Shown: positions 7,813 through 32,337 of the stretch, piece after piece
How positions within the stretch are numbered: the stretch's first letter is position 1
Layout of the letters: the number at the start of each line of letters is the position of its first letter
NCBI GenBank assembly: GCA_020161245.1
Contig: JAIUOK010000020.1
Location: 4,325 to 68,324 of the forward strand
Origin: Actinomycetota bacterium
GTDB taxonomy: Bacteria > Actinomycetota > Actinomycetes > S36-B12 > CAIYMF01
Length of the DNA: 64,000 nt
Direction of reading: 5' to 3'
Made by a program: the position numbers and the translations under genes
The notes under the pieces: model-generated
What the model was told of the DNA's origin: nothing
Seen by the model: the letters and a program-made list of their open reading frames with translations, nothing else
Database searches by the model: none

Positions 7813-8451
7813 TCAGGGGCCGATGCGGCGGGCGGCCGAGGCCGAGCCGAGCCAGGTGTGCGGGTTGCGGTCCCAGCACCAGCCGAGGCGCGGCGCGCCG
7901 TACGACATCCACAGCGCCGGCACGCGCTGATCGGCGCGCCGGCTGGCCAGCAGGCTGAACGCCGTCCGCGCCACGAGCGCATCGGGCACCTGGAGCAGCG
8001 TGCTCACGCCCTCGTCGATCGTGAGCGGGGTGCGCCCGTCGGCGGTGATCGCCACCAGCGCGTCCTCGGGCCGCACGTCGCGGTAGCGCGCGCCGAGGTC
8101 GACGTCGACGAGCAGGTACGCCGGGCCGGGCACGTCCACCAGCGCGATCGGCGCGAAGTCCTCCGGCTGAAGCGGGTTCATGTCGACCCTGCCCGCCTTG
8201 CCCCGGGCGACCACCCGCTCCATCGCGGTGCCGGTCGCGAGGGCGCCCGACGTCACCACGGCCACGACCGGGAGCCGGTCGGCGTCGTGATCGCCGCCCT
8301 CCTCGGCCTCGGCCACGGGCCGGAGCCCCTCGAGGGTGGCGAGAGCGGCGGGGTCGAGCACGCCCTCGGCCGCGAGGGCGGCGAGGTGCTCGAGCTGGAC
8401 GGCGTACGACGGGGCGGGCGAGGCGACGACGGGCGTGCGGGGCACAGGCAT
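7813..8451 (-). CDS. DUF5701-like hypothetical protein
   Basis: RTPLTIDEG, RVPALW, LGWCWDRNPHTWLGSAS C-terminal signature; start re-called at ATG 8451. Confidence 0.65.
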   Translation of the reverse strand: MPVPRTPVVASPAPSYAVQLEHLAALAAEGVLDPAALATLEGLRPVAEAEEGGDHDADRLPVVAVVTSGALATGTAMERVVARGKAGRVDMNPLQPEDFAPIALVDVPGPAYLLVDVDLGARYRDVRPEDALVAITADGRTPLTIDEGVSTLLQVPDALVARTAFSLLASRRADQRVPALWMSYGAPRLGWCWDRNPHTWLGSASAARRIGP

Positions 8452-8573: not shown

Positions 8574-11261
8574 TCAGGCCTCGGGGGAGGCGGCCTTCGC
8601 GGCGGCGGTCTTCTTCGCCGCCGTCCTCTTCGCCGCCGTCTTCTTCGCGGCGGCCTTCTTGGCCGGGGCCTTCTTGGCCGCCGCCTTCTTCTTCGGCGCA
8701 GGGTCCTTGGCGCGGCGCTCGGCGAGCAGGTCGGCCGCGCGCTCGACCGAGATCGTCGACGGGTCGTCGGCCCGGCGCAGCGACGCGTTGGTCTCACCGT
8801 CGGTCACGTACGGGCCGAAGCGGCCCTCCTTGAGCTGGATCTCCTTGTTCGTCGACGGGTCGATGCCGACGATGACGGCGGGCTTGGCCGCAGCCTGGCC
8901 GCGGCGCGTCTTCGGCTGCGCGAGCAGCGCGAGGGCGCCCGGGAGGTCGATGGTGAAGATCGATGCCTCGTCCGGCAGCGACCGGGAGTCCTTCTCCTTG
9001 GTGATGTACGGGCCGTAGCGCCCGTTCTGCGCCGTGATCTCCTTGCCGTCGGCGGGGTCGACGCCGACCACGCGGGGCAGCGAGAGCAGCTTGAGCGCGT
9101 CGTCGAGCGTGACGGTGTCGAGCGCCATGTCCGCGAACAGCGAGCCCGTGCGCGGCTTGGCCGACTTGGGCGCACCCTCCTCCAGCACCTCGGTGACGTA
9201 GGGGCCGTAGCGCCCGGTCTTGGCGACGATCGTGCGGCCGGTCGACGGGTCGATGCCGAGCTCGCGGTCGCCCGAGGGCAGGTCGAGCAGCTCCTGCGCC
9301 TTCTCGGCCGTGAGCTCGTCGGGCGCGATGTCGGTCGGCACGTTGGCGCGCTGCTCGCCCTTCTCGACGTACGGGCCGTAGCGGCCGACGCGCAGCACGA
9401 TGTCGGAGTCGGCGATCGGGAAGGACGAGATCTCGCGCGCGTCGATCTCGCCGAGGTCGCTGGCGAGCGCCTGCAGGCCGGCGTAGCCGTCGTAGCCCTT
9501 GTAGAAGCGGTCGAGCACCGCGATGCGGTCGCTCTCGCCGGTGGCCACGGAGTCGAGGCGCTCCTCGAGCCGCGCGGTGAAGTCGTACTCGACGAGCCGG
9601 GTGAAGTGCTCCTCCATGAGGCGCACGACGGCGAAGGCGAGGAACGAGGGCACCAGCGCCGACCCGCGCTTGGTGACGTACCCGCGGTCGACGATCGTGC
9701 CCATGATCGCGGCGTACGTCGACGGTCGGCCGATGCCGCGCTCCTCGAGCGCCTTCACCAGCGACGCCTCGGTGTAGCGCGGCGGCGGGTTGGTGGTGTG
9801 GCCCTCGGGGTCGAGGCGCACCGCGGTGACGGCGTCGCCGACCGACAGTGGCGGCAGCCGGCGCTCGGCGTCGGCGTCGTCGGTGTCGCGGCTCTCGTCG
9901 ACCGACTCCTCGTAGGCGGCGAGGAAGCCGCGGAAGGTGACGACCGTGCCGCTCGCGGAGAACTCGGCGTCGCGGCCGTCGGACGCCGTCGCGCCGAGGC
10001 GGATCGTGGCGGTCTGGCCGCGGGCGTCGGCCATCTGCGACGCGACCGTGCGCTTCCAGATGAGGTCGTAGAGCAGGAAGTCGTCGCCGCGCAGCTCGCC
10101 CGCGACCTCGGCGGGCGTGCGGAACACGTCGCCGGCGGGGCGCACGGCCTCGTGGGCCTCCTGCGCGTTCTTCACCTTGCGGTCGTAGCGGCGCGGCACC
10201 TCGGCGACGTGGTCGGAGCCGTAGAGCTCGGCAGCCTGCGCGCGGGCGGCGTTCAGCGCCGACTCCGACAGCGTGGTGGAGTCGGTACGCATATAGGTGA
10301 TGTAGCCGCGCTCGTAGAGGCCCTGCGCCACGCGCATCGTGCGCTGCGCTCCCCAGCGCAGCTTGCGGCTGGCCTCCTGCTGCAGCGTGGAGGTCATGAA
10401 CGGCGCGGCGGGCGAGCGCTTGTAGGGCTTGTCCTCGACCGACCGCACGCTGAACGATGCGCCCTGCAGCGCCGCCGCCAGCGACGTCGCCGCCTCCTCC
10501 GACAGGTGCGCGGCGTCGGCGCGGGTGAGCACCGCACGGTCGTCGAAGTCCTTGCCGCTGGCCACGCGGGCGCCGTCGACGGCGACGAGCTTGGCGCTGA
10601 ACGAGCCCGGGTCGAACAGGCCCTCGATGTCCCAGTACGACGCCGAGCGGAACGCGATCCGCTCGCGCTCGCGGTCGACCACCAGGCGGGTAGCCACCGA
10701 CTGCACACGGCCCGCGGAGAGGCCGGTCATGACCTTCTTCCAGAGGACCGGGCTGACCTCGTAGCCGTAGAGGCGGTCGATGATGCGGCGGGTCTCCTGC
10801 GCGTCGACCAGCGCGGTGTCGAGCTCGCGGGTCTCCTGCGCGGCGCGCTGGATCGCGTCGCGGGTGATCTCGTGGAAAACCATCCGGCGAACCGGCACCT
10901 TGGGCTTGAGCACCTCGAGCAGGTGCCACGCGATGGCCTCGCCCTCGCGGTCCTCATCCGTGGCGAGCAGGAGCTCGTCGGCGTCGGCGAGCTTCTTCTT
11001 CAGCTCGGCGACCTTGGTGCGCTTGTCGGCATCGACGACGTAGAGCGCCTGGTAGCCGTTGTCGACGTCGACGCCGAGCCGCGACCACGGCTCCTTCTTC
11101 AGCTTCTCGGGGATCTCCGACGCCCGGGTGGGCAGGTCGCGGATGTGCCCCACGGAGGCCTCGACCTCGTACCCCGGGCCGAGGTAGCCCTGGATGGTCT
11201 TGGCCTTGGCCGGCGACTCGACGATGACGAGCCGACGACCCTCCTTCGCCTTGGGGGGCAC
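8574..11261 (-). CDS. topA: DNA topoisomerase I (type IA) with actinobacterial C-terminal repeats and Lys/Ala-rich tail
   Basis: IVESPAKAKTI, ATDEDREGE, SAGRVQS, ITYMRTDS catalytic Tyr, GRYGPYV repeats, AAKK tail. Confidence 0.97.
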   Translation of the reverse strand: MPPKAKEGRRLVIVESPAKAKTIQGYLGPGYEVEASVGHIRDLPTRASEIPEKLKKEPWSRLGVDVDNGYQALYVVDADKRTKVAELKKKLADADELLLATDEDREGEAIAWHLLEVLKPKVPVRRMVFHEITRDAIQRAAQETRELDTALVDAQETRRIIDRLYGYEVSPVLWKKVMTGLSAGRVQSVATRLVVDRERERIAFRSASYWDIEGLFDPGSFSAKLVAVDGARVASGKDFDDRAVLTRADAAHLSEEAATSLAAALQGASFSVRSVEDKPYKRSPAAPFMTSTLQQEASRKLRWGAQRTMRVAQGLYERGYITYMRTDSTTLSESALNAARAQAAELYGSDHVAEVPRRYDRKVKNAQEAHEAVRPAGDVFRTPAEVAGELRGDDFLLYDLIWKRTVASQMADARGQTATIRLGATASDGRDAEFSASGTVVTFRGFLAAYEESVDESRDTDDADAERRLPPLSVGDAVTAVRLDPEGHTTNPPPRYTEASLVKALEERGIGRPSTYAAIMGTIVDRGYVTKRGSALVPSFLAFAVVRLMEEHFTRLVEYDFTARLEERLDSVATGESDRIAVLDRFYKGYDGYAGLQALASDLGEIDAREISSFPIADSDIVLRVGRYGPYVEKGEQRANVPTDIAPDELTAEKAQELLDLPSGDRELGIDPSTGRTIVAKTGRYGPYVTEVLEEGAPKSAKPRTGSLFADMALDTVTLDDALKLLSLPRVVGVDPADGKEITAQNGRYGPYITKEKDSRSLPDEASIFTIDLPGALALLAQPKTRRGQAAAKPAVIVGIDPSTNKEIQLKEGRFGPYVTDGETNASLRRADDPSTISVERAADLLAERRAKDPAPKKKAAAKKAPAKKAAAKKTAAKRTAAKKTAAAKAASPEA

Positions 11262-11336
11262 CTATCTCCTCCTGCACTCGCTGCCGGGCATCCCGGGCCG
11301 CGGCCGTCCCGCCGCTGCGAAGCCCGGTCGTGGCGG

Positions 11337-11367
11337 AGTGTGACGGCATCCCGGGGGCCTGTGTCAA
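11337..11367 (-). promoter_or_regulatory. Candidate sigmaA-type promoter of topA
   Basis: Minus-strand TTGACA (11367-11362), 19 nt, then CACACT; spacing slightly long. Confidence 0.4.
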
Positions 11368-11520
11368 ACACATCCATCCTCGCCCGGCGTGTCGCCGGCC
11401 GCCCCACCGGGGGTGAAACCCCAGGTCAGACCCCTCCCCGCACCCCCGATCGAGACCCCGCCCACATTGCGCCCCGCAGCCTCGCCAGCCCGAGTTCACA
11501 ACCCGCCGCTCCGGCGGTAA

Positions 11521-11629
11521 CGGGTGAAGTCCCCTACTGGCCGCCGCGTCGTTCCTCCGCGCCGACCAGCGGGGGCCCATCCCCCGCTTGCGATAGAAGC
11601 AAGGAAAGCGCCCCAGGCTGTCCACAGGC
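11521..11629 (+). repeat. 109-bp repeat, left copy (inverted partner at 15491-15599)
   Basis: Hand alignment with the reverse complement of 15491-15599 gives 106/109 identity. Confidence 0.95.
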
Positions 11630-11716
11630 AGGGGCCAGGCACCCGATCCGCCCACAGGGCGGGGCCGTCGTGGACGAGCTCCGACGACGTCCGTGCAGGA
11701 TCCTGCCCCGCCGGCG

Positions 11717-12121
11717 TCAGGGGCGGGCGGAGAGCTGCATCGACTCCGCGAGCAGGTCGTAGGCCTGGGCCCAGGCGTCGCGGGTGGCGGCGTCCCACGC
11801 CGGGTCGTGGGCGGCGAGCGCATCGACCAGCACCGGCCCGAGGGCGGCGTACTGCGACGCCGTGACGCGGTGCGCCACGTGCACGCGGGCCAGCCGCTCA
11901 CTGGTCTCGGCGAAGGCCGGGAAGTCCGGGATCGCCGCCACGATCGCCGCGACGCTGTCGCCGAACTTCTTCTCCTGGGCCTCCATCTGGGCGGGGAAGG
12001 CGTCGCGCAGATCGGGGTAGAGGGCGAACAGGCGCGAGTAGAACGTGTGGGCGACGTCCGGCAGCACCGGTGCGAGCCGCTGCGCGCTCGCCGTCACCAA
12101 GTCGATCTCGTGCGGGTTCAT
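11717..12121 (-). CDS. Single-domain globin (flavohemoglobin-like globin domain, no reductase)
   Basis: FY (B10 Tyr), LF..YP..R..F (CD1 Phe), Q (E7), L..VH (F8 His), AW..AY; AGGAGG SD. Confidence 0.85.
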   Translation of the reverse strand: MNPHEIDLVTASAQRLAPVLPDVAHTFYSRLFALYPDLRDAFPAQMEAQEKKFGDSVAAIVAAIPDFPAFAETSERLARVHVAHRVTASQYAALGPVLVDALAAHDPAWDAATRDAWAQAYDLLAESMQLSARP

Positions 12122-12239
12122 CCGTGCCTCCTGGGCGTGGTCGTGCTGGCGTGCCCCCCGGCACCGACGGCCTGCGCCGTCCTCGCCCGTCCTGCGTGAT
12201 GGCGCCGATCGGCGCCGTGGTCCGTGTACGTCGTCGAGC

Positions 12240-14954
12240 TCATCGGCCGCGCCCCGATCGCGCGGCCGGCACGGAGCCGGAGCCGCCCTCGGACAGCCCG
12301 AGCGCGGCGGCGAGCTGCGCGCGGCCAGCGATCCCGAGCTTGGCGTAGACGTTGGCGAGGTGGTTGTCGACCGTGCGCACCGACAGCACCAGGTCGGCCG
12401 CCACCTCCTTGCTGCTGCGGCCGCGAGCAGCGAGCGACGCGATCTCGCGCTCGCGCGGGGTCAGCAGCGCCGCGCCTGCGGCCGAGCCGAGTCCCTCGAC
12501 CTGCATGCCAGGCGACTGGTCGGCCCAGGCTCGCGCTCTCGCCTCGGCCGCGGCGGCCGCACGCGGGTCTCCCTCGGCACGCAGCACTTGCGCCGCCTGC
12601 GCCGCGAGAGTGGCCGCGGAGTGGACGAACGCGCACGCGGCGAAGCCCTCAGCCGCCGCGAGGAGGTCGGCTGCGGACCCCGACAGCAGTGCCTGCGAGC
12701 GGAGCCGACGTGCGTTCCCGAGCGGCGTCGGAACGTGCGCGACGACGTCGGGCAGCTCCGCCGCGGCCTCGGCGTCGCCCCACATCACCGCCTCGTCGAG
12801 CAGCATCGCCGCCTCGCGGTACTCGCCGCGCGCGGCCAGCTCGCGGCCGTGCTCGACGACGAGCGAGGCAGCCGTGCGCAGATCGCCGTCGACGCTGGCG
12901 ACCCAGGCCCGCGACACCGTCTCCATCGGGGCGAAGGCCGGCGCGGGCGCTGGCAGAGCAGCGGCCCTGCCGAGCCACTCGTGGGCGGCCGCGGCATCGC
13001 CGAGCAGCGAGGTGCTCTCGGCCATGCCCAGGACCGCGAGCCGCTCGACCTGCCCGAAGCCGTGCCGGCCCGCCGTCGCCGCCAGCTCGCGGAACGCCGA
13101 CGACGCGTCCTCGGCGAAGCCGCCGAGCAGGTCGATCTCCGCGACGACCCAGGCGAGCCAGGCGGCCTGGAACAGCACGCCCTGGGCGATCGCGACGTCG
13201 CGCCCCTGGGCCGCGAGAGACCGCGCCTCGCCGGGCCGGCCGAGCTCGAGGCTCGCGAGCGCGGCGACCATGAGGTCGCCGGACGGGTGCAGCAGGCCGG
13301 CCGGCTGGTCCTCGTCGGTGCCCTCCTGCCATGCGGCCAGCGCCACCCTCACGGCGGTCTCGGCGTCGCCTGTCCGGTGCGCGGCCCAGGCGTGCGCCCG
13401 GTGGTGCACAGCCCGCATCGCCGGATCGGCCGGCGCCTCGGCCGGCAGCACGGCGAGCGCCTCGGCGCTGCGGCCGCCCTGGGTCAGCAGCAGCGCCCGC
13501 ATCGAGTCGAGGACGGCCCGGCCCTGCACCACGACGTCGTCAGGCTCCCCCGAGGCGGCGATCGCCTCCGACGCGGCGGCGAGCCCCGCCAGGGCGACGT
13601 CAGGGCGCCCGAGGCCGAAGAAGCGGACGATGCCGTGCGCCAGCGCGATCCGCACGGACGCCGGCGACGCGACGTCGTCGCCGGCAGCGGCCGCGCCCTC
13701 CGACAGCACCGCGTCGGCCTCGTCGAACAGGCCCTGCTCGTAGAGCGCCTCGCCGAGCAGCGCGCTGGCGCGGGCGTCGGGCTCGAGCAGCAGGGCGGCG
13801 CGGGCGAGCCGCTCGACCTGCGGGTAGTCGTGCGACGCGCGCGCGAGCTCGGCGCCGGTCACCAGAGTCTCGGCGTCGGCGGTCCCGGTGGCGTCGAGGC
13901 GCCAGGCGGCCACGCGCAGCACGTCGTCGCGCCGGCGCGCGCCGTGGGCTTCGGTGCGGGCCACCTGGTCGAGCAGCAGCCGGCGCGACTTCAGCCGCGG
14001 CAGGCTGCTGGTGAGCACCTGCGCGTAGACCGGGTGCGCGAGCTGCACCTGCTGACGGCGGCGGTCGACGACCACCCTGATCACGCCCGCGGCCTCGAGC
14101 TGCTCGAGGACGTCCAGCGGCGTGTGCTCGGCCAGCTCGTCGGCGCCGAGCGGCTGGCACAGCGCGAGCAGCTCGACCAGGGTGCGCGCTTGGGCGTCGA
14201 GGACGCCGATCCGCTCGGCCACGAGGCTCTCGAGCCCGCCCGTCACGTCGAGCGCGCCCGAGAGCACCCAGACGCCGTCGGTCTCGTCGAGGCGCCCGGC
14301 GAGCACGGCGCCCGTGACGAGCTCGCGCAGGTAGAGCGGGTTGCCGCGGCTGGCGGTCCACAGGGCATGCTCGGCCTCGGCCGCCACCGGCCCACGGAGA
14401 ACCCGGTGCAGCAACGTGCCCACGGACTGCCGGGGCAGGTCGCCGATCTCGAGTCGCAGCACCCCGCCACGGCGATGCTCGGCCACGAGCACGCCTGGTG
14501 TCGGCGTCCCCGTGCGCTGGGTCGCGATGATCACCGCGAGCCCTTCGCGCCACAGCCTTGACAGCAGGTCGCACGACACGGCGTCGAGCGCGTCGACGTC
14601 GTCGACATGGATCACGACGCGCGCGCCGTCGCCGAGATCGCGGACGTGCTCGACGACGGCGTCGAGCACGACTGACGGGTCGGGACCGGACGGGCCGGCG
14701 CCGTCGGGCAGCAGGGGCGAGAGCGCGGAGAGGGGGACGGCGGCGGCGCTGTCGGTGGCCGCGACCGACACCGTGGGGTAGCCGTCGAGCTCGGCGCTGC
14801 GCAGGCACTCCTGCGCCAGACGGGTCTTGCCGGTCCCGGCGTCGCCCGCGAGGTGCACGACGGCGACGGCGGGGTCGGCCAGCGCCGCCACCACACGCTC
14901 GAGGTCGCTGCCCCGTCCCACCAACGGCCAGTCGAGGCTGGTCGTCGTCCCCAT
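12240..14954 (-). CDS. Large ATP-binding LuxR-family (LAL/MalT-like) regulator
   Basis: WPLVGR start, Walker A GDAGTGKT, VDDVD Walker B, GNPLYL, long helical region, C-terminal LTPRE..I..LAA.G...KE.A..L..S.RTV..H...VY.KLG HTH; start re-called at 14954. Confidence 0.92.
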   Translation of the reverse strand: MGTTTSLDWPLVGRGSDLERVVAALADPAVAVVHLAGDAGTGKTRLAQECLRSAELDGYPTVSVAATDSAAAVPLSALSPLLPDGAGPSGPDPSVVLDAVVEHVRDLGDGARVVIHVDDVDALDAVSCDLLSRLWREGLAVIIATQRTGTPTPGVLVAEHRRGGVLRLEIGDLPRQSVGTLLHRVLRGPVAAEAEHALWTASRGNPLYLRELVTGAVLAGRLDETDGVWVLSGALDVTGGLESLVAERIGVLDAQARTLVELLALCQPLGADELAEHTPLDVLEQLEAAGVIRVVVDRRRQQVQLAHPVYAQVLTSSLPRLKSRRLLLDQVARTEAHGARRRDDVLRVAAWRLDATGTADAETLVTGAELARASHDYPQVERLARAALLLEPDARASALLGEALYEQGLFDEADAVLSEGAAAAGDDVASPASVRIALAHGIVRFFGLGRPDVALAGLAAASEAIAASGEPDDVVVQGRAVLDSMRALLLTQGGRSAEALAVLPAEAPADPAMRAVHHRAHAWAAHRTGDAETAVRVALAAWQEGTDEDQPAGLLHPSGDLMVAALASLELGRPGEARSLAAQGRDVAIAQGVLFQAAWLAWVVAEIDLLGGFAEDASSAFRELAATAGRHGFGQVERLAVLGMAESTSLLGDAAAAHEWLGRAAALPAPAPAFAPMETVSRAWVASVDGDLRTAASLVVEHGRELAARGEYREAAMLLDEAVMWGDAEAAAELPDVVAHVPTPLGNARRLRSQALLSGSAADLLAAAEGFAACAFVHSAATLAAQAAQVLRAEGDPRAAAAAEARARAWADQSPGMQVEGLGSAAGAALLTPREREIASLAARGRSSKEVAADLVLSVRTVDNHLANVYAKLGIAGRAQLAAALGLSEGGSGSVPAARSGRGR

Positions 14955-15165
14955 CCGGCCCCCTCGGTCGGCGGTGTCGGCTCGCGCGTCGTACGGGTCG
15001 ATGCCGCGCTGGCCGGCGTCGTCTCGGGCCCCGCCCCCGTGCGGGCTCGCGCGCCACAGGCTAGGGCCGCGGGGCGCGCGGAGTGGCCGAGTCCGGCGCG
15101 CGTCGCACGACCGGGTCCGGCGTCGGGCTGCGGTGCTGGGCATGGCCGGTGCCAGGTGCGCGGCG

Positions 15166-15318
15166 TCAGCGCCAGGTGAGGGGGCGGGCGACGGCGTAGC
15201 GGCGGGTGAGGGGCAGCGCGGAGGAGCTGCGGCGGCGGGCGTGGCGCGCCTTGACGGCGGCGACGACGGCGATGCGGCGGGGGTCGGTGGCGACCGGCGG
15301 GACGGTGTGCGTGCTCAT
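15166..15318 (-). CDS. 50-aa Arg-rich small protein (MSTHTVPPVATDPRRIAVVAAVKARHARRRSSSALPLTRRYAVARPLTWR)
   Basis: All 50 sense codons end in G/C; CACTGT -10-like element 7 nt before ATG; not called separately in the ORF track. Confidence 0.6.
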   Translation of the reverse strand: MSTHTVPPVATDPRRIAVVAAVKARHARRRSSSALPLTRRYAVARPLTWR

Positions 15319-15353
15319 GACGGGAACAGTGCCGCGGGCCCCTGGGTAGGTAC

Positions 15354-15372
15354 CTGAGTAGTGATTGCTCAG
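15354..15372. promoter_or_regulatory. Candidate operator palindrome CTGAGTA-N5-TGCTCAG
   Basis: Imperfect 7-5-7 palindrome, AT-rich for this genome, centred about 45 nt upstream of the small ORF ATG. Confidence 0.45.
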
Positions 15373-15490
15373 ATCGCATCGCCGCAGGTCAGAGCGGGTG
15401 CGGGGGGGCGGGCGGGCATGGTGCCGCTCCGCCGCCGGGGACGTGCCCGCCCGAGCCGCCGCCTGTGGACGGGGATGCGGACGGCAGGGG

Positions 15491-15599
15491 GCCTGTGGAC
15501 AGCCTGGGGCGCCTTTCTTGCTTCTATCGCAAGCAGGGGATGGGCCCCCGCTGGTCGGCGCGGAGGAACGACGCGGCGGCCAGTAGGGGACTTCACCCG
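15491..15599 (-). repeat. 109-bp repeat, right copy (inverted)
   Basis: 106/109 identical to 11521-11629 on the opposite strand. Confidence 0.95.
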
Positions 15600-15614
15600 G
15601 AAAGCACCAGGGGG

Positions 15615-17114
15615 TCAGAGGTGGAGGAGGGCTTCTTCGATGAGGCCGCGGACGGCGATGAGGGCTCCGGGGAGGACGTCGTCGGGGTCGAGGTCGTGGA
15701 CGGTGGCGGCGCCGTCGATCGCGTCGGAGACCGTCGTCGCGCCATCGAAGCTGCGGACGAGGTGGGCGCCCACGGAGTCGAGCAGGACGTCGGGGCGCCA
15801 GCCGTCGACGAGCGCGAGGCGCGGCGGCACTGCCGAGAGGCGGCCGGCGGCGTCGGCGACGTCCACCTCCGACAGCCGCAGGCCCTCCGCCCGACGGGGA
15901 CGCGAGCCGAGCAGCGCGAAGGCGTCGACGTCGGCCCAGGCGGCACGCGCGGCGACCAGCTGCGCCACCTCGTCGCCGTCGGGCAGGCGCGGCGCGTGCG
16001 CCACGTCCTCGATGCGCGGGCCCTGCGCGCCGTAGGTGCCGCCCTTGTGCAGCACCACCCAGCCGAAGCCCACCCCCTCGGCATCCATCGCGTCGAACGC
16101 GTCGAGCCACTCGGCGTAGCGGCGGTCGAGCTCGTCGCGGTCGTCGGAGCCGCCGGCGTCGCGCAGCCAGAGCCCCACGTACTCGGCGGGGTCCTGCACC
16201 TCGCGCTGGGCGACCCACGCATCGCACCCCGTCGGGGCGCACCAGGAGGCCACCCGCTCGCGCCAGTCCTCGCCTCGGCGGTGCAGCCAGTTGGCGAGCA
16301 CCACGGCGGTGCCGCCGTCGGCCAGGTGCGACGGCGCCTGCTGGAGCAGCAGCCGGCCGAGGTCGTCGGCGGGCAGGCCGGCGTCGCGGTAGGTGTAGCG
16401 GTGGCCGGGCGAGATGACGAACGGCGGGTTGCTCACGACGAGGTCGAACTGCTCGCCGCCGACCGGCTCGAACAGCGAGCCCTCGCGCAGGTCCCACTCC
16501 TGGCCCGACAGCGCCGCGCTGACAGCGGCGAGCCGCAGCGCGCGCCGGTTGCGGTCGGTGGCGACGACGCTGCGCGCGTGCCGGCCGAGGTGCAGGGCCT
16601 GCACGCCGCAGCCGGTGCCGAGGTCGAGCGCGCGGCCCACCGGCGTGCGCGGCGTGATGCGGGCGAGGGTGAGGCTCGCGCCGCCGACGCCGAGCACGTG
16701 GTCGACGGCCACCTCCCCGCCGCCCCAGCCCGCGGAGTCGTGCCCGGCGGAGTCCGGGCCGTGGTCGCTGACGACGTACCAGTCGGTGTCGGGCTCGCCG
16801 TAGGGGCGGACGTCGACCACCGCCCGCAGCTCGGACGCGCCGCCGACGAGACCCGCGGCGAGCAGGTCGTCGAGCGGCAGCTCGCGCTCGGCGTCCTCGC
16901 GGGCGACCGGCTCGCCGAGGACGAACAGCCGGGCCAGGGCGGCGTCGGTGCCGCTGCGGCCCTCGAGAGCGCGCCGGGCGGGCACCGGCTCGCCGCGCGA
17001 GAGGGCGGCGTACGCCGACGGGCCGAGCAGGGCGAGCAGGCCGTCGGCGGTGTAGCCGGCGTCGAGCAGGACGGGACGCAGCCGTCGGGCGGCGGCGAGG
17101 TCGGGATCGCTCAC
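15615..17114 (-). CDS. Class I SAM-dependent methyltransferase (conserved actinobacterial topA-neighbour type)
   Basis: DHVLGVGGAS, ALDLGTGCGVQ, VVSNPPFVI; start GTG 17114 within the long supplied ORF. Confidence 0.85.
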   Translation of the reverse strand: MSDPDLAAARRLRPVLLDAGYTADGLLALLGPSAYAALSRGEPVPARRALEGRSGTDAALARLFVLGEPVAREDAERELPLDDLLAAGLVGGASELRAVVDVRPYGEPDTDWYVVSDHGPDSAGHDSAGWGGGEVAVDHVLGVGGASLTLARITPRTPVGRALDLGTGCGVQALHLGRHARSVVATDRNRRALRLAAVSAALSGQEWDLREGSLFEPVGGEQFDLVVSNPPFVISPGHRYTYRDAGLPADDLGRLLLQQAPSHLADGGTAVVLANWLHRRGEDWRERVASWCAPTGCDAWVAQREVQDPAEYVGLWLRDAGGSDDRDELDRRYAEWLDAFDAMDAEGVGFGWVVLHKGGTYGAQGPRIEDVAHAPRLPDGDEVAQLVAARAAWADVDAFALLGSRPRRAEGLRLSEVDVADAAGRLSAVPPRLALVDGWRPDVLLDSVGAHLVRSFDGATTVSDAIDGAATVHDLDPDDVLPGALIAVRGLIEEALLHL

Positions 17115-17284: not shown

Positions 17285-19639
17285 TCAGGCCGCGGCCGGA
17301 GCCTCGGTCGGCTCCTCCTCGCCCACGGTGATCGCGCGGCGCTTGGACACGATGACCGCGCCGACCACCACGAGCACCGCGACGATCGCGATGCCCCAGC
17401 GGGCGAGGTCGGCGCCGGAGAGGAACAGGCCGACGACGGCGGGGGCGATCAGCAGCGCCACCAGGTTCATCACCTTGATGAGCGGGTTGATCGCGGGGCC
17501 CGCGGTGTCCTTGAACGGGTCGCCGACCGTGTCGCCGATGACCGTCGCGGAGTGCGCCTCGGAGCCCTTGCCGCCGAAGTGGCCGTCCTCGACGAACTTC
17601 TTCGCGTTGTCCCAGGCGCCGCCCGAGTTCGAGAGGAAGACCGCCATGAGGACGCCGGTCGCGATCGTGCCGGCGAGGTACGAGCCGAGCGCGCCGATGC
17701 CGAGGCCGAAGCCGACGGCGATCGGTGTGAGCACGGCCAGCAGGCCCGGGGTGGCGAGCTCGCGCAGCGAGTCGCGCGTGACGATGTCGACGACCTTCGC
17801 GTACTCGGGCTTCTCGGTGCCCTCCATGATCCCGGGGTGCTCGCGGAACTGGCGGCGCACCTCGAAGATCACCGCGCCGGCAGCGCGGGAGACCGCGTTG
17901 ATGGCGAGGCCGGAGAACAGGAACACGACCGAGGCACCGATGATCAGGCCCACGAGGTTGCTCGGGTTGCTGATGTCGAGGATCGCCCGGTACTGGTTCT
18001 GGTCGATCGGAGCCGGCACGTTCTCCGGCAGGATCCCGTTGTTGATCGCGTTCGTCGTCGCCTGCACCACGGTGTCGCGGAACGACCCGAACAGCGCGGT
18101 GGCGGCGAGGACGGCGGTCGCGATCGCGATGCCCTTGGTGATCGCCTTGGTGGTGTTGCCGACGGCGTCGAGCGAGGTGAGCACCTGGGCGCCCTCGCCG
18201 TGCACGTCGCCGGACATCTCGGCGATGCCCTGCGCGTTGTCCGACACCGGGCCGAAGGTGTCCATCGAGACGATGACGCCGACGGTGGTGAGCAGGCCGC
18301 AGCCGGCGAGCGCGATCGCGAACAGCGACAGCACGATCGAGCCGCCGCCGAGCAGGAACGCGCCGTACACGGCGGCACCGATGAGCAGCGCCGAGTAGAC
18401 GGCCGACTCGAGACCCACCGAGATGCCCGCGAGGATGACCGTCGCGGGGCCGGTGAGCGAGCTCTTCGACACGTCGTCGACGGGCTTGCGGTTGGTCTCG
18501 GTGAAGTAGCCGGTCAGCTGCTGGATCGCAGCCGCGAGCACGATGCCGATGATGACGGCGCCGAGCGCGAGCAGACGCGGGTTGAACGTGTCGACGTCCA
18601 CGAGGCCGAGGTTGTCGACGACGACGCCGCGCAGCAGCGTGATCCGGTCCGGCAGGTAGACGAAGGTCACGATCGCGACGAGCACGATCGAGATCGCCGC
18701 GGAGATGAAGAAGCCGCGGTTGATGGCGCTCATGCCCGAGCGGTCGCCGGGGCGCGGGGCCACCGCGAAGATGCCGATGACGGCGGTGATGACGCCGATC
18801 GCCGGGATGATCAGCGGGAACACGAGGCCGGCGTCGCCGAAGGCCGCCTTGCCGAGGATCAGCGCAGCGACGAGCGTGACGGCGTAGGACTCGAAGAGGT
18901 CGGCCGCCATGCCGGCGCAGTCGCCGACGTTGTCGCCCACGTTGTCGGCGATGGTCGCCGCGTTGCGCGGGTCGTCCTCGGGGATGCCCTGCTCGACCTT
19001 GCCGACGAGGTCGGCGCCGACGTCGGCCGCCTTGGTGAAGATGCCGCCGCCGACTCGCATGAACATCGCGAGCAGCGCGGCGCCGAAGCCGAAGCCCTCG
19101 AGCACCGTGGGGGCGTCGCCCTTGTAGACCAGCACGACGACGGCCGCGCCGAACAGGCCGAGGCCGACGGTGAACATGCCCGCGACGCCGCCGGTGCGGA
19201 AGGCGATGCGCATCGCCTGCTGCTCGCCGGACTCGTTGGCGGCGGCCGCGACGCGGACGTTGCCGCGGACGGCGAGCCACATGCCGACGTAGCCGGTGAT
19301 GGCGGAGAACACCGCGCCGACGAGGAAGAAGATCGAGCGACCGATCCTCTCCGACTGCGTGTCGGCGGGCAGGAAGAACAGCAGGACGAAGACCAGCGCC
19401 GCGAAGATCGACAGGGTGCGGAACTGGCGGCTCAGGTACGCCGCTGCACCCTCTTGGACCGCGGCTGCGATCTCCTTCATGCGGTCGGTGCCCTCGCTGG
19501 CAGCGAGGACCTCCCGGACCAGAACCCACGCGACTCCGAGGGCGAGCAGCGCGATGACCGCGACCACTGCGACGAAGGCGTAGTTCGAGCCCGAGACATC
19601 CACGCTGACCGTTGCGGCAGCGAGCGTCGTCGGGGACAT
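17285..19639 (-). CDS. hppA: Membrane-integral ion-translocating pyrophosphatase (predicted K+-independent H+-PPase)
   Basis: GGIFTKAADVGADLVGKVE, IPEDDPRN, DNVGDNVGD, GNTTKAITK, GDTVGDPFKDTAGP; start re-called at ATG 19639 after GAGGAG. Confidence 0.95.
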   Translation of the reverse strand: MSPTTLAAATVSVDVSGSNYAFVAVVAVIALLALGVAWVLVREVLAASEGTDRMKEIAAAVQEGAAAYLSRQFRTLSIFAALVFVLLFFLPADTQSERIGRSIFFLVGAVFSAITGYVGMWLAVRGNVRVAAAANESGEQQAMRIAFRTGGVAGMFTVGLGLFGAAVVVLVYKGDAPTVLEGFGFGAALLAMFMRVGGGIFTKAADVGADLVGKVEQGIPEDDPRNAATIADNVGDNVGDCAGMAADLFESYAVTLVAALILGKAAFGDAGLVFPLIIPAIGVITAVIGIFAVAPRPGDRSGMSAINRGFFISAAISIVLVAIVTFVYLPDRITLLRGVVVDNLGLVDVDTFNPRLLALGAVIIGIVLAAAIQQLTGYFTETNRKPVDDVSKSSLTGPATVILAGISVGLESAVYSALLIGAAVYGAFLLGGGSIVLSLFAIALAGCGLLTTVGVIVSMDTFGPVSDNAQGIAEMSGDVHGEGAQVLTSLDAVGNTTKAITKGIAIATAVLAATALFGSFRDTVVQATTNAINNGILPENVPAPIDQNQYRAILDISNPSNLVGLIIGASVVFLFSGLAINAVSRAAGAVIFEVRRQFREHPGIMEGTEKPEYAKVVDIVTRDSLRELATPGLLAVLTPIAVGFGLGIGALGSYLAGTIATGVLMAVFLSNSGGAWDNAKKFVEDGHFGGKGSEAHSATVIGDTVGDPFKDTAGPAINPLIKVMNLVALLIAPAVVGLFLSGADLARWGIAIVAVLVVVGAVIVSKRRAITVGEEEPTEAPAAA

Positions 19640-19804
19640 GCACGTGCTCCTCAGGCGGAAGTGGGGGTCGCCACCCTCGCCGGAGGAGCGGCTTCGACCC
19701 TCGAACGCGCCGGAGTCTACGCAGGGGTGTGACCTGGGCCACCCGCGCGGGGGTGCGGCATGGGTCACACCTCGGCCGCCCGCGCCGGCCGGCGGCGCCG
19801 GGCG

Positions 19805-20182
19805 TCAGGCGGTGGCGGGCCAGCGCAGGACGACGCGGCCGCCCTGCACCTCGGCGTCCGGCACGACGGCGGTGACCAGCGCGAGGCCCACCTCGTCGTC
19901 GTCCGGGGTGTCCGCGGGCGCGCGGTCGTCGATCTCGACGACGAAGGCGCCCGAGTCGTCGCGCAGCACGACGTCGACGTCGTCGTCGACTCCGGCCGAG
20001 GCGTGGCGGCGCACGGCTCGCGCGACCGCCTCACCCACCGCGAGGCGGACGTCGTCGACGGTCTGCTCGTCGAGCCCGAGGCGGCGCGCCGCGGTGACAG
20101 CCACCAGGCGCGCGGTGCGGACGTGCTCGACGGAGGGCGGCAGCGTCAGCGTCGCCGCGGTCTGCTCCCCCACGACGGTCAC
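19805..20182 (-). CDS. Anti-sigma factor-like HATPase_c protein (SCO3548-like)
   Basis: LPP..EHVRTARL, VRLAVGEA, GL.L; GTGA overlap with the STAS gene. Confidence 0.8.
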   Translation of the reverse strand: MTVVGEQTAATLTLPPSVEHVRTARLVAVTAARRLGLDEQTVDDVRLAVGEAVARAVRRHASAGVDDDVDVVLRDDSGAFVVEIDDRAPADTPDDDEVGLALVTAVVPDAEVQGGRVVLRWPATA

Positions 20183-20517
20183 CCGGCGACCGCGGACTCG
20201 ACGGTCGGGTGCAGCGGGATGAGGGTGTCCAGGCCGGTCAGGCGGAAGACCTTGGCCACGCGGTCGGCGGTGACGACGACAGCCAGCGACCCGCCGTCGT
20301 GCTCCCGGACGCGCTTGAGCGTCTTCACCAGCACGGCCAGGCCCGTGGAGTCGAGGAAGTCGACGCGCGAGAGGTCCACCACCACGCGGTGCTGCCCCCC
20401 GCCGGTCACGGCCGACAGCTCGGAGTCGAGCTGCGGGGCCGTGAAGATGTCGATCTCGCCCGCGGCGGAGACCACCGCGATGCCGTCCTGGTCGTGCGTG
20501 CTCACGTCGAGGTCCAC
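20179..20517 (-). CDS. bldG: Anti-sigma factor antagonist (STAS), BldG-like
   Basis: GEIDIFTAP, VDLS.VDFLDSTGL phospho-Ser motif; divergent from the DUF1998 helicase as at the Streptomyces bldG locus. Confidence 0.8.
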   Translation of the reverse strand: MDLDVSTHDQDGIAVVSAAGEIDIFTAPQLDSELSAVTGGGQHRVVVDLSRVDFLDSTGLAVLVKTLKRVREHDGGSLAVVVTADRVAKVFRLTGLDTLIPLHPTVESAVAG

Positions 20518-20573
20518 CTCTGCACTCTGACACAGGTGCGCGGGCGTCGGGGCGGTCGGGGAGGATCGGTTTC

Positions 20574-22898
20574 GTGCCCGTCCCCACACCCGACCAGCTG
20601 CTCGGCCGGCTCACGGCCGGACGGCCCGACCGCCTGCTGCACGTGCAGCACGTGCCGGCGCGGACGGGCACCGCGGTGGGGTGGCCGGGGTGGGTGCCCG
20701 ACGAGCTGCGCGACGCCCTCACCCGCCGCGGTGTCACGAACCCCTGGGCCCACCAGGCCGACGCCGCCGAGCACGCGCGGGCCGGGCGCCACGTCGTCGT
20801 CGCGACGGGGACGGCGTCGGGCAAATCGCTGGCGTACCTGCTGCCCTCGATCACCGCCGTGCTCGAAGGCACGCGCGCTCCCAACGGCCGCGGCGCCACG
20901 GCCCTGTACCTGTCCCCCACGAAGGCGCTCGCGCACGACCAGTGGCGCTCGATCCAGGAGCTCGGGCTCGACGGCCTGCGGGCCGCCGCCTACGACGGCG
21001 ACACCGCCGACGAGGAGCGCGCCTGGATCCGCCAGCACGCCGGCTACGTGCTGTCCAACCCCGACCTGCTGCACCGCTCGATGCTCCCTGGGCACGAGCG
21101 GTGGGCGTCCTTCCTGCGCGCGCTGCAGTTCGTGATCGTCGACGAGTGCCACGTGTACCGCGGCCTGTTCGGCTCGCACGTCGCCAACGTCCTTCGCCGG
21201 CTCCAGCGGGTGTGCGAGCGGTACGGGTCCTCGCCCACGTTCGTCCTCGCCTCCGCCACGGCCGGCGACCCCGCGGGCTCGGCGTCGCGGCTCGTCGGGC
21301 TCGACGTCGTCGCCGTCGCCGACGACGCGTCGCCGCGGGGCGCCACGCACTTCGCGCTGTGGGAGCCGCCGCTGCAGGAGCACGGGGGCGAGAACGACGC
21401 GCCCACTCGCCGCACCGCGACCGCCGAGACGGCGTCGCTCATGACCGACCTCGTCGTGGAGGGCGTGCGCACGCTGGCCTTCATCCGGTCGCGGCGCGGG
21501 GCGGAGGCCGTGGCCATGACCGCGCGCGACTCGCTGCTGGAGGTGGAGCCCGACCTCGCCCACCGGGTGGCGGCCTACCGCGCCGGCTACCTGCCCGAGG
21601 AGCGTCGCGAGCTCGAGGACCAGCTGCGCGACGGCCGGCTGCTCGGCGTCGCGGCCACCAGCGCCCTCGAGCTCGGCGTCGACGTGACCGGCCTCGACGC
21701 CGTGCTCCTGTGCGGCTGGCCCGGCACCCGCGCCTCGCTGTGGCAGCAGGCCGGGCGCGCGGGGCGGTCCGGCCGCGACGCCCTCGCCGTCCTCGTGGCG
21801 CGCGACGACCCGCTCGACACCTATCTCGTGCACCACCCGGCCTCGCTGTTCGGCTCGCCCGTCGAGGCGACGGTGTGCGACCCGACCAACCCCTACGTGC
21901 TCGGTCCGCACCTGTGCGCTGCCGCCGCCGAGCTGCCGCTGACCGACGACGACCTGCCTCGCTTCGGCCCGACGGCCCCCGACGTGGTCGAGGCCCTCGT
22001 CGTCCGCGGCCTGCTGCGCAAGCGGCCCGGCGGCTGGTTCTGGACCCGCCAGGAGCGGGCCAGCGACCTCGCCGACCTGCGCGGCATCGGCGGCGGCATG
22101 GTGCGCGTCGTCGAGGACGAGACCGGCCGGCTGCTCGGCACCGTCGACCCCGGCGCAGCGCACTCGACCGTGCACGACGGCGCGGTCTACGTGCACCAGG
22201 GCCAGACCTACGTCGTCGACCGCCTCGACCTCGACGACGCCGTGGCCGTCGCCCATCGCGAGGCCGTCGACTACACGACGTCGGCGCGCGACACCACCGA
22301 CATCCGCGTCGTCGGCGAGATCGAGCGCACGTCGTGGGGCGACGCCGAGCTCGTCCACGGGCACGTCGAGGTGACCAACCAGGTCGTCGCCTATCTCAAG
22401 CGGCGCTACCTCACCGGCACGGTCCTCGGCGAGGAGCCGCTCTCCCTGCCCCCGCGCCAGCTGCGCACGCAGGCCGTGTGGTGGACCGTCACGCCCGAGC
22501 AGCTGCAGGCCGCGCAGCTGCTCGACGTCGACGTGCCGGGCGCGGCCCATGCCGCCGAGCACGCCTCGATCGGTCTGCTGCCCCTGGTGGCGACCTGCGA
22601 CCGCTGGGACATCGGCGGGGTGTCGACGGCGATGCACCCCGACACCGGCCGCATGACGGTGTTCGTCTACGACGGCCACCCCGGCGGTGCCGGGTTCGCA
22701 GCCCGGGGGTACGCCGCCGCGCGCACGTGGCTCGCCGCCACGCGCGAGGCGATCGCCTCGTGCGAGTGCGCCGACGGCTGCCCCTCGTGCGTGCAGAGCC
22801 CCAAGTGCGGCAACGGCAACGACCCGCTCGACAAGGCCGGCGCCGTGCGCCTGCTCGACGTCCTGCTCGCGGGCGCCCCGGGCGGCCCCGCGGCGTAG
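20574..22898 (+). CDS. DEAD/DEAH helicase with C-terminal Zn-binding DUF1998 domain (Rv3649/SftH-like)
   Basis: TGTASGKS, DECH, SAT, ALELGVD, QQAGRAGR, C-terminal CxC..GCPSC...PKC. Confidence 0.92.
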   Translation: MPVPTPDQLLGRLTAGRPDRLLHVQHVPARTGTAVGWPGWVPDELRDALTRRGVTNPWAHQADAAEHARAGRHVVVATGTASGKSLAYLLPSITAVLEGTRAPNGRGATALYLSPTKALAHDQWRSIQELGLDGLRAAAYDGDTADEERAWIRQHAGYVLSNPDLLHRSMLPGHERWASFLRALQFVIVDECHVYRGLFGSHVANVLRRLQRVCERYGSSPTFVLASATAGDPAGSASRLVGLDVVAVADDASPRGATHFALWEPPLQEHGGENDAPTRRTATAETASLMTDLVVEGVRTLAFIRSRRGAEAVAMTARDSLLEVEPDLAHRVAAYRAGYLPEERRELEDQLRDGRLLGVAATSALELGVDVTGLDAVLLCGWPGTRASLWQQAGRAGRSGRDALAVLVARDDPLDTYLVHHPASLFGSPVEATVCDPTNPYVLGPHLCAAAAELPLTDDDLPRFGPTAPDVVEALVVRGLLRKRPGGWFWTRQERASDLADLRGIGGGMVRVVEDETGRLLGTVDPGAAHSTVHDGAVYVHQGQTYVVDRLDLDDAVAVAHREAVDYTTSARDTTDIRVVGEIERTSWGDAELVHGHVEVTNQVVAYLKRRYLTGTVLGEEPLSLPPRQLRTQAVWWTVTPEQLQAAQLLDVDVPGAAHAAEHASIGLLPLVATCDRWDIGGVSTAMHPDTGRMTVFVYDGHPGGAGFAARGYAAARTWLAATREAIASCECADGCPSCVQSPKCGNGNDPLDKAGAVRLLDVLLAGAPGGPAA

Positions 22899-24044: not shown

Positions 24045-24079
24045 CTGGGGACAGCCGCGCGTCTGCAGCGGCTGTGGAC
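24045..24079 (-). promoter_or_regulatory. Paired GTCC(A/C)CAG motifs upstream of the pilin gene
   Basis: CTGGGGAC 24045-52 and CTGTGGAC 24072-79 on +, 27 bp apart. Confidence 0.4.
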
Positions 24080-24249
24080 AGCCCGCGGGGCCGACCGGGT
24101 GACGCCGCGCGGCGCAGCCCGACCGGCCGGTCGCGCGAGGCTCCACGTTCGTTCTTCCGCGCACCGCCGGCGGCGCCGCGGCCGATAGGACAGGTCGACG
24201 ACTGGCAGCACGGCGGCCCGCGGGGCCGGCGACGAGCAAGGGACCGACG

Positions 24250-29308: not shown

Positions 29309-30802
29309 GTGGCCGAGCCGTCCGACGTGCGCGCGCGCCGCCGCGCGGCGGACGCCCACGGCGCCTGGCACGGCGACCCGCTCGACGGCCGGCTCGACCT
29401 CGACCGCCTCGACGACCCGCTCGACCCCTACGGCAGCGAGCCCCTCGACCTCGACGTCGTCGGCGACGACAGCCCGCTCCTCGCCGAGCGCCTGCGCACC
29501 TGGATGGAGGGACGCGGGGTCCTCGTGTGGCTGCGGACCCACCGGCCGGTGGTGGCGGTCGTCGTCGCACTGGCGGCGCTCGGCCTCGTGGCGGCGGGAG
29601 GCTGGTGGCTGGCCCGGCCCGCCTACCTCGCCGACGAGGCGCGCGTCGAGGTGACGACCAGCGGCCAGGAGCCGGCCCGCCTCATCGTCGATCCGGCCAC
29701 CGGCCACATCACCGGCATCACCCAGCTCGTCCTGCTGTCGTCGGCGGAGACGCCGACGGTCACGGTCGATGCGCTCGGCGTCGTCGGCCCCGGACTGTCG
29801 CGGCCCACCGCGCGCATCCCGTCGTCGGTCGCGGGCGCGCCGACCACCGGCGCAGTGGCCGCCGACGTCTCGTGCGACCGGCCCGAGGAGACCGACGCCG
29901 TCGTGACGTCGCGCGCGGCGGACTACCGCGTGCGCGTGCAGCGCACCGACTCGGCCACCGGCGAGCAGCGGATCGACACCGTGCCGCTCGAGGGGGCCGA
30001 GGAGTGGCTGCGCGACGTGCGACGCGCGTGCGTGCAGATCGCCGCCGACCGCGACCTCGAGGTGCGGGCCGTCGACGCCGCGCAGGTCGAGGGCTCGGTG
30101 GCCGCCGACATCCGGATGCTGGTGCGCAACAGCGCCGACCGGCCCTGGCGCTCGGTACGCGTGTCGACGCTGGGCGCGCCCACCGTCGTCGCCGCGACTC
30201 CGGACATCGATATCCCCGCCGGCTCCGAGGAGTGGGTGACCGTACGGCTGTGGCCCGACGACTGCAGCGACCCCGTGCGCCCGCTCGCGCAGGGAGTGCC
30301 GCTGCGCGCCGCGCTGGAGGACGGCATCGCCGTCACCGAGTCGCGCGCCCCCACGTTCTACCTGCCGCTGACCAACGGGCTCGACACGGTGGCGGATGCC
30401 CTGCGCACCACCTGCACCGCCGAGCCGCCGACGGCGACGATCACCAAGGCCCGTGTCTCGGGGTCGTCGATCCAGGACGGCTCCGGCACCATCGACATCT
30501 GGATCGACCTGGCGGTGCCGTCGGGCGGGGTGGTCGAGGTGCAGCAGCCGCTGGCCGACAGGGCAGGCGTGGTGACGCCGTTCGAGGACGTCGTGCCGGT
30601 CGGCGCCGACGGCATCGCGCAGGTGCGCGTGCAGTGGGAGGTGCCGGGCTGCTTCGCGATGCTGCAGGCCGGCCCGCCGGTGCTCAGCGTGCGGGTCGCG
30701 TCGGACCTGCGCCGCCCCTACCGCCTGCCGCTCACGGGCGAGTCGATGCGCACCAACCTGGCCCGGCTGTGCGGGACCACCGCCGGCAGCGTCGTCGCCT
30801 GA
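29309..30802 (+). CDS. Array paralog 1: single-pass membrane protein with 6-Cys ectodomain
   Basis: DGRLDLD, TM near aa 80-100, GVVGPGL, six Cys; AGGAG SD. Confidence 0.85.
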   Translation: MAEPSDVRARRRAADAHGAWHGDPLDGRLDLDRLDDPLDPYGSEPLDLDVVGDDSPLLAERLRTWMEGRGVLVWLRTHRPVVAVVVALAALGLVAAGGWWLARPAYLADEARVEVTTSGQEPARLIVDPATGHITGITQLVLLSSAETPTVTVDALGVVGPGLSRPTARIPSSVAGAPTTGAVAADVSCDRPEETDAVVTSRAADYRVRVQRTDSATGEQRIDTVPLEGAEEWLRDVRRACVQIAADRDLEVRAVDAAQVEGSVAADIRMLVRNSADRPWRSVRVSTLGAPTVVAATPDIDIPAGSEEWVTVRLWPDDCSDPVRPLAQGVPLRAALEDGIAVTESRAPTFYLPLTNGLDTVADALRTTCTAEPPTATITKARVSGSSIQDGSGTIDIWIDLAVPSGGVVEVQQPLADRAGVVTPFEDVVPVGADGIAQVRVQWEVPGCFAMLQAGPPVLSVRVASDLRRPYRLPLTGESMRTNLARLCGTTAGSVVA

Positions 30803-32321: not shown

Positions 32322-32337
32322 GCCGGGGACGGCCGGC

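Follow-up and report, generated by a model that had tools for sequence, protein, structure and literature searches.

The locus considered here raises the question of how three regulatory genes came to lie between two inverted repeats on a bacterial chromosome. A 64,000-nt stretch of DNA from an Actinomycetota bacterium (contig JAIUOK010000020.1 of assembly GCA_020161245.1), analysed as a whole and termed the window, has a G+C content of 74.7% and carries two 109-nt inverted repeats, termed the arms, that enclose the genes of a short peptide, a LuxR-family ATPase and a globin. The three genes might be a cassette captured between the repeats, a segment that inverts between them, or old residents that dispersed repeats have come to flank. 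Our analysis favors the last of these. We propose that the arms are probably sister copies of a dispersed, non-autonomous and hairpin-forming intergenic repeat, similar to repetitive extragenic palindromic (REP) elements, REP doublets forming hairpins (REPINs) or miniature inverted-repeat transposable elements (MITEs), and that they flank an old resident three-gene module. This module would not be a captured composite element, and inversion of it is not demonstrable.

A repeat search of the window revealed that the two arms are 109 nt each, 97% complementary and separated by 3861 nt. Pairwise alignment showed that 106 of the 109 positions are identical between the left and right arms, and that the similarity drops sharply beyond both outer ends. 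The inverted repeats described in the initial annotation of this DNA are thus real, and so is the lack of a target-site duplication, as the outer flanks (GCGGTAA on the left and GAAAGCA on the right) share no direct repeat. The 22-mer CGGGTGAAGTCCCCTACTGGCC, which forms the outer part of the arm, has exactly two occurrences in the window, one per strand, compared to none in 100 shuffles. The repeat search, the alignment and the comparison of copies described below defined the following elements:

11521-11629, plus strand: left arm, a long-variant copy of the dispersed repeat
15491-15599, minus strand: right arm, a long-variant copy co-oriented with the genes, in the 3′ flank of the methyltransferase gene
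11651-11659, plus strand: second TCCACAG-like box of the left arm, CCCACAGGG
15461-15469, minus strand: second TCCACAG-like box of the right arm, TCCACAGGC

The left arm sits between the globin stop codon and the promoter of topA, antisense to the local transcription. From its outer end, it consists of 9 nt (CGGGTGAAG), a 51-nt subfamily-specific insert (11530-11580) and a 49-nt core (11581-11629) with the terminus CTGTCCACAGGC. The right arm has its outer end 15 nt past the stop codon of the methyltransferase gene. On the left, the second box begins at an offset of exactly 30 nt from the first box, which is at the inner end of the arm, across a 21-nt spacer that is not conserved; on the right, the second box also starts 30 nt after the first, and is kept in a sister species (contig L035), in which the spacer is not.

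The imperfect hairpin assigned by the initial annotation to the outer ~60 nt is indeed present in the outer half of the arm (CTGGCCGCCGCG...CGCGCCGACCAG), but the whole arm, when taken by itself as RNA, is on neither strand more stably folded than shuffled sequences (z = -0.8 and -1.1). A search against Rfam revealed nothing at gathering thresholds across the whole window. Under permissive settings, the arms matched the Corio-PBP RNA (RF02945) with 29.3 and 24.9 bits, compared to a gathering threshold of 63.5, and membership of this family was rejected. The sub-threshold match covers 11553-11611 on the minus strand and 15509-15567 on the plus strand, opposite to the orientation of the repeat unit and inside the long insert region, where it includes the GCGGGGGAUGGGCCCCCGC hairpin.

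A 24-nt pattern taken from the arm's inner half retrieved 17 loci in a scan of Joint Genome Institute (JGI) metagenomes; 13 of these loci are on different contigs of one metagenome, and altogether the repeat unit was found at at least 19 loci besides the window. Alignment of the copies revealed a common unit of ~65 nt, shorter than the arm, that reads GGTGAAGG...GCTTGCGATAGAAGCAAG...CCCCAGGCTGTCCACAG and has the consensus (T-N-N-C)-N-GGTGAAGGTGCCCCCGCTTGCGATAGAAGCAAGGAAAGCGCCCCAGGCTGTCCACAG. The arms of the window represent a rare long variant, in which 51 nt take the place of GTG after GGTGAAG; this variant also occurs at locus L025 and in the sister species (contigs L035 and L036). The depth of Logan contigs, followed at 24-nt resolution in four metagenomes, is 7-16x over the flanks, 2-5 times the flank over the long insert (11534-11581) and 24-40 times the flank over the core (11582-11629), a step at 11582 that marks the boundary between insert and core. 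The core is present in tens of copies per genome-equivalent, although part of this depth comes from related species that occur in those samples. The MITE- or REP-like nature of the arms, suggested by the initial annotation, is supported by these dispersed copies.

An exact search for the 19-mer GGGTGAAGTCCCCTACTGG of the long variant in 185,579 representative genomes of GTDB, among which the source species is not included, found no match save two chance hits, one in Verrucomicrobiota and one in Ktedonobacterales, that lack extended similarity. Collections of plasmids and phages gave no blastn match to the repeat, and two matches in low-GC viral contigs were judged to be chance. The family appears to be specific to an uncultured Sporichthyaceae-related genus, and represents a new REP/REPIN-like family of a known kind. 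It was previously uncatalogued, and its host belongs to an uncultured, very GC-rich actinobacterial lineage that is common in wastewater and freshwater.

Two further sequences resemble the family. On the minus strand of the window, 24045-24091 contains a box pair, CTGTCCACAGCC and TCCCCAGG, separated by 18 nt, and a C-rich stretch ahead of it resembles the unit minus its central hairpin. The pair lies in an intergenic region between divergent genes, ahead of a minus-strand gene whose start is at 23951, and may represent a decayed copy of the repeat. Contig L033, a relative without the three-gene module, has GCTGAAGGTGCCCCAGGCTGCCTAAGACGCAGCC at 7894-7960, directly after the methyltransferase stop codon; it resembles the unit ends (GAAGGTGCCCC...AGGCTG) around a different small hairpin (GGCTGC/GCAGCC), and may be a distant or remnant relative of the repeat family at the same position.

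Second copies and their orientations were located with a hidden Markov model of the unit. In all nine independent loci with two units, the units face inward with their TCCACAG ends, across gaps of 5, ~6, 17, 63, 612, 722, 980, 1447 and 3861 nt. The four close pairs (L014, L026, L028 and L019) form doublets of ~145-200 bp with inverted halves of ~60 nt; their flanks show no visible direct duplication, and no parent insertion sequence was found for them. The doublets of L014, L026 and L028 fold into ~65-bp hairpins of -108 to -122 kcal/mol (z = -12 to -15), and a 5x5 internal loop is conserved between L014 and L026. In each of the five split pairs, one to three ordinary genes lie between the units. 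Their functions are unrelated: a luciferase-like monooxygenase, a GNAT acetyltransferase, two uncharacterised open reading frames (ORFs; no family search was made on these) and the peptide-LuxR-globin module. Among 20 units with a callable neighbour, 16 follow a co-oriented gene, at 2-75 nt from its stop codon, and each of the four exceptions is the second member of a pair. As the pairs always face inward and the two arms here are both of the rare long type, the inward bracketing is not pure coincidence but is characteristic of the family, even around a cargo that is not mobile. The initial annotation had regarded abundance, random orientation and repeat-free relatives as signs that the bracketing is coincidental; the repeat is abundant and relatives keep the genes without it, whereas its orientation is not random.

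The genes at the locus were called by frame analysis of the G+C content at third codon positions (GC3), in combination with Pfam, as follows:

8574-11261, minus strand: topA, flanking gene
11717-12121, minus strand: globin (PF00042), single-domain, 134 aa
12240-14954, minus strand: LuxR-family regulator with an N-terminal AAA_16 ATPase domain (LAL/MalT-like), 904 aa as called in metagenome contigs
15166-15318, minus strand: 50-aa basic peptide gene with the start MSTHTVPPVATD..., high GC3 and no Pfam hit
15615-17114, minus strand: DUF7059/MTS methyltransferase, flanking gene
17285-19768, minus strand: H+-pyrophosphatase (H+-PPase), beyond the methyltransferase
20179-20589: STAS (BldG-like) gene, beyond the H+-PPase

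An unbroken minus-strand run leads from the H+-PPase through the methyltransferase, the right arm, the peptide, LuxR and globin genes and the left arm to topA. The three genes between the arms are co-oriented and none encodes a transposase, and they are flanked by the topA promoter and the methyltransferase-hppA-bldG block, all in agreement with the initial annotation. Between the left arm and the topA start codon is the conserved promoter region of that gene, which reads TTTGACA...GTCACACT and is preceded by CTGACCTG.

Searches with the methyltransferase and the LuxR protein identified the closest relatives. The sister species (L035/L036) shares 88.5% DNA identity with the window, is colinear over 8.7 kb, and has the same three genes in the same orientation with both long-variant arms. 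More distant relatives have the module without the repeats. In L039, whose methyltransferase is 84% identical, the methyltransferase, peptide, LuxR and globin genes and the topA promoter are arranged and oriented as in the window, and neither side has a unit. The same gene set is found in L040, with the peptide gene inverted and again without a unit, and in L041 the methyltransferase is directly followed by LuxR, also without a unit. Longivirga aurantiaca (L037) and a related metagenome-assembled genome (L038) possess LuxR-globin-topA and no unit, with a TopA of 86% identity. Because the same genes occupy the same site without units in these relatives, the comparison indicates that the module is older than the repeats, which arrived in the lineage of the window and L035.

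These relatives bear directly on the captured, non-autonomous composite element that the initial annotation had put forward, in which two MITE copies captured the peptide-LuxR-globin genes and inserted as a 4.08-kb unit between the methyltransferase gene and topA. The family "tips" of the inverted arms do point outward, the geometry that a transposase requires, both arms come from the same rare subfamily, and in some relatives the module is missing, with the methyltransferase gene next to topA (L031) or a NUDIX gene between the two (L033). However, the module keeps its site and order without units in L039, L040 and L041 and adjoins topA in Longivirga, no target-site duplication exists, and a conspecific strain described below has the module with one arm only. 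Moreover, the other split pairs hold unrelated genes, of which the one that could be checked, the monooxygenase of L016, is resident at its site, and no second location of the module was found among 23 contigs with an identical globin. Pfam scans of selected ORFs in the first 40 kb of the window (1-40 kb) revealed housekeeping and regulatory genes and several ORFs without a hit, but no domain of a transposase, integrase, invertase or recombinase. Altogether, a composite transposon is exceedingly improbable at this locus. As posed, such an element would be a new way of moving regulatory genes; ruling it out prevents the mistaken annotation of a conserved chromosomal module as mobile.

The left arm is polymorphic within the species. 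In the conspecific strain that dominates runs X2 and X4, a contig joins 11474 to 11709 via ACCGGG, so that 11475-11708 (234 nt, including the whole left arm) is missing, which constitutes a presence/absence polymorphism. The X2 contig has a depth of 40, and the X4 contig, of 2249 nt, has a depth of 7.5, with zero depth over 11486-11509. The cassette and the junction between the right arm and the methyltransferase gene are both present in this strain. As L035 has the left arm, its absence from X2/X4 is most simply explained as a loss.

A comparable case is provided by L016 and L030, which are 89% identical and colinear, with a unit between the hydrolase (FAH) and monooxygenase genes in L016 only. 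The adjacency of these two genes in the unit-free L030 indicates that the monooxygenase enclosed in L016 is resident at its site. At the position of the L016 unit, L030 (18655-18720) has an unrelated hairpin with a 13-bp stem (GAGTTACTGCCCA...TGGGCAGTAACTC), and intergenic "slots" in the genus appear to hold different palindromic elements. Precise insertion boundaries were recoverable neither from L016 against L030 nor from the window against L039, as the intergenic DNA is too diverged.

The initial annotation had also considered an invertible segment, in which the 109-bp arms recombine with each other, so that the module is turned around and its expression, or that of topA, is altered. An inverted repeat of 109 bp with 97% identity is a possible substrate for homologous recombination, and the species-specific substitutions common to both arms suggest that sequence has been exchanged between them. 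By contrast, a single orientation was found in 6 of 6 assembled contigs that cross an arm (L001, L002, L003, L008, L035 and L036), which represent two species, the sister species having both arms and the same gene order. The scanned ORFs include no site-specific recombinase nearby, within ~25 kb, and no promoter-like element was found that inversion could reposition. In addition, differences between the cores of the two arms (CCCCCGC versus CCCCTGC; GGAAAG versus GAAAGG/GAAAAG) are common to both species, indicating that the inner halves have not been exchanged, and family pairs elsewhere that are only 5-63 nt apart cannot invert. Judging from the assembled contigs, we consider inversion very improbable, though it may occur at low frequency. 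Joints in Logan contigs recorded as "skips 3863" were examined as excision products and rejected, as they are doublets at other loci, one of them with a spacer, CGGAAGC, identical to that of L026.

How the two arms came to share their sequence is suggested by the subfamily and its substitutions. Membership of both arms in a subfamily of 2-5 copies makes independent insertion unlikely, and the shared rare subfamily, together with the shared species-specific substitutions, points to a common origin. We propose that the units spread via a trans-acting enzyme that would be encoded elsewhere in the genome, and that one arm was copied from the other or both derived from one doublet. At this locus, the arms would neither move nor flip genes, and would at most act in the manner of REPs or bacterial interspersed mosaic elements (BIMEs), as protein-binding or transcript-end/insulator structures between the methyltransferase gene, the module and topA.

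Several observations weigh against this proposal. No transposase or REP-associated tyrosine transposase (RAYT) for the repeat family was found in the window or at the scanned loci, so that mobility is deduced only from the copy number and the presence/absence polymorphism. No clean pair of empty and filled sites with a target duplication was obtained, and the X2/X4 indel exchanges 234 nt for 6 nt, which is not a precise excision of 109 nt. Independent insertions do not account for the strict inward polarity of the pairs that surround resident genes. Furthermore, the arms are far better conserved between species than the DNA around them: between the window and L035, the two arms are 91.7% and 91.8% identical, compared to 84.5-95.4% for coding DNA and 35-78% for adjacent non-coding DNA. 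At a neutral rate of ~0.3, nine differences per 109 nt are, by our own calculation, about five standard deviations too few. A predicted C-G pair of the long insert in the window is G-C in L035 and L025, and the change is found in both arms of each species, which suggests selection for the hairpin and exchange between the outer halves of the arms. The box at +30 is likewise kept while the 21-nt spacer drifts. The conservation of the arms, the retained box and the compensatory change argue for selection or homogenisation over passive selfish insertion.

These observations lend themselves to the alternative that the repeat is a structural or regulatory element selected by the host, rather than a selfish one, and serves as a protein-binding site with two phased TCCACAG boxes similar to the DnaA box, as an RNA stem, or as both. 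Inward pairs would then delimit small modules. They might insulate these transcriptionally or topologically, or form long-range duplexes that RNase III cuts, and would here isolate the haem-sensor module from topA. In addition to the arm identity of 92% between species and the compensatory pair change in both arms, the placement of the second box fits such a role. Among 16 units outside the tight doublets (gaps of 5-17 nt), a second TCCACAG-like box starts at +30 nt in seven and at +19 nt in two, compared to only two matches at any other offset between 9 and 60, and the spacer is unconserved. The internal loop of the L014 and L026 doublets, the inward orientation of 9/9 pairs and the position of 16/20 units just after a co-oriented stop codon are also in line with a host function.

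On the other side, the units are dispensable, being absent at the same sites in close relatives, and one arm is absent in the conspecific strain. A consensus fold of 22 single units showed no covariation, and scans of 11100-15800 for promoters and terminators found none. Coverage of the arms in metatranscriptomes is too low to show processing, and the three enclosed genes are weakly expressed. Gene conversion among copies could also mimic selection. The DnaA-box likeness proved a weak lead: CTGTCCACA agrees at 8/9 positions with TTGTCCACA, the actinobacterial DnaA box consensus, but matches at 8/9 or more positions are not enriched in the window (4 versus 3.0 expected). A host-selected element is possible, though we hold it to be the lesser likelihood by far. 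Its more specific form, a host-maintained "gene-bracketing" element in which inward 65-nt pairs with two helically phased TCCACAG boxes per unit delimit modules of one to three genes, is rather doubtful; such pairs could be protein-bound insulators or long-range RNA stems that isolate the haem-sensor module from the supercoiling-sensitive topA. Taken as a whole, a host function is unlikely, while the inward pairing and the cross-species conservation with a phased second box are unexplained by independent selfish insertion. To our knowledge, REP-like elements have been little studied in Actinobacteria, and the inward pairing, the cross-species conservation and the fixed-offset second box make this family a reasonable system for REP-like function in that phylum.

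Comparison with known systems places the dispersed repeat closest to REP elements. REP/BIME elements and REPINs are mobilised by RAYT transposases (Bertels & Rainey 2011, PMC3116915). The present units resemble them in being short, highly conserved and extragenic, in occurring in tens of copies mostly at the 3′ flanks of genes, and in forming both singletons and inverted doublets that fold into long hairpins, with orthologous copies that persist between species. They differ in length (~65 nt versus 20-40 nt) and in the 5′ end, which lacks the GTAG motif and starts with GGTGAAGG preceded by T-N-N-C. Moreover, no RAYT gene was seen in the loci scanned here, the copies number tens rather than hundreds, the split inward pairs enclose whole genes, and the units have, at a fixed offset, a second TCCACAG box in direct orientation. 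The host differs as well, being an actinobacterium, whereas REPIN/RAYT systems have, as far as we know, been described mainly in Proteobacteria.

In other known systems, too, repeats delimit genes. Composites bracketed by MITEs include the integron mobilisation units and the 439-bp MITE pairs that flank class 1 integrons in Acinetobacter. They share with the present locus two inverted copies of a small non-autonomous repeat around a few genes without a transposase. However, the known composites have a target-site duplication and occur with their cargo at different sites. The present locus lacks a duplication, and its cargo occupies the ancestral site, where it is also found without repeats. 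Invertons and master-invertase systems, for example Mpi and the fin sites of Bacteroides fragilis, are similar in that one inverted-repeat sequence at many loci flanks segments of variable length. By contrast, no invertase and no second orientation in contigs crossing an arm were found here, many pairs are 5-63 nt apart, and the segments are complete genes instead of promoters. In the pdif modules carried by Acinetobacter plasmids, gene modules are surrounded by Xer sites that alternate in orientation, and there too short inverted repeats resembling recombination sites delimit small modules with unrelated cargo. Nevertheless, the present repeat is unlike dif sites in sequence, shows no sign of module exchange, and encloses at one chromosomal site a cargo that also occurs there without the repeats.

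The enclosed module itself is a candidate gas or redox sensor beside topA. The globin is of the full-length 3/3 type. Among solved structures, the closest relative (3wfw) is a fusion of a globin with a Roadblock/LC7 signalling domain. Globin and LuxR-ATPase genes are adjacent in every relative that possesses them. In addition, the database protein P0239 (1021 aa) combines AAA_16/AAA_22 ATPase domains and a globin domain in one chain, a fusion that supports functional coupling of the LuxR-ATPase and the globin, which are separate genes here. These features would be consistent with a haem-based sensor of gas or redox state that is paired with a large LuxR-type regulator.

The peptide gene is the best-conserved DNA of the module, with 95.4% identity to the L035 copy. 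A homologue search with the peptide returned its own cluster only, and homologues are recognisable in Longivirga, L039 and L040. Just upstream of the gene, a near-palindrome, GATCTGAGCAATCACTACTCAGG (15353-15375, minus strand), is conserved in L035, L039, L040 and Longivirga, and is a candidate operator, perhaps of the neighbouring LuxR regulator. Copies of the motif CTGACCTG(C/G)G precede both the peptide gene (15385-15392, minus strand) and the topA promoter (11421-11429, motif on the minus strand), and the arm-free relatives L031, L033, L037 and L039 have a single CTGACCTGCGACGA upstream of topA. The peptide has the N-terminus MS[ST]HT[IV]PP. Its gene shares the orientation of LuxR in the window, L035 and L039 (1997-2131, plus strand), and is inverted and divergent from LuxR in L040 (4384-4548, minus strand) and Longivirga (L037, 7036-7200, minus strand). 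These differing orientations indicate that a ~350-bp segment comprising the gene and the candidate operator flipped between lineages, independently of the 109-bp arms.

Further along the window, the regions at 22.9-24.2 kb and 24.7-27.3 kb are very GC-rich, with ambiguous coding frames. Downstream of them, four ORFs of ~480-500 aa with a strong coding signal lie on the plus strand within ~7.5 kb (29309-30802, 32224-33711, 33754-35232 and 35297-36745); the two that were scanned with Pfam gave no hit, and the last three are arranged back to back.

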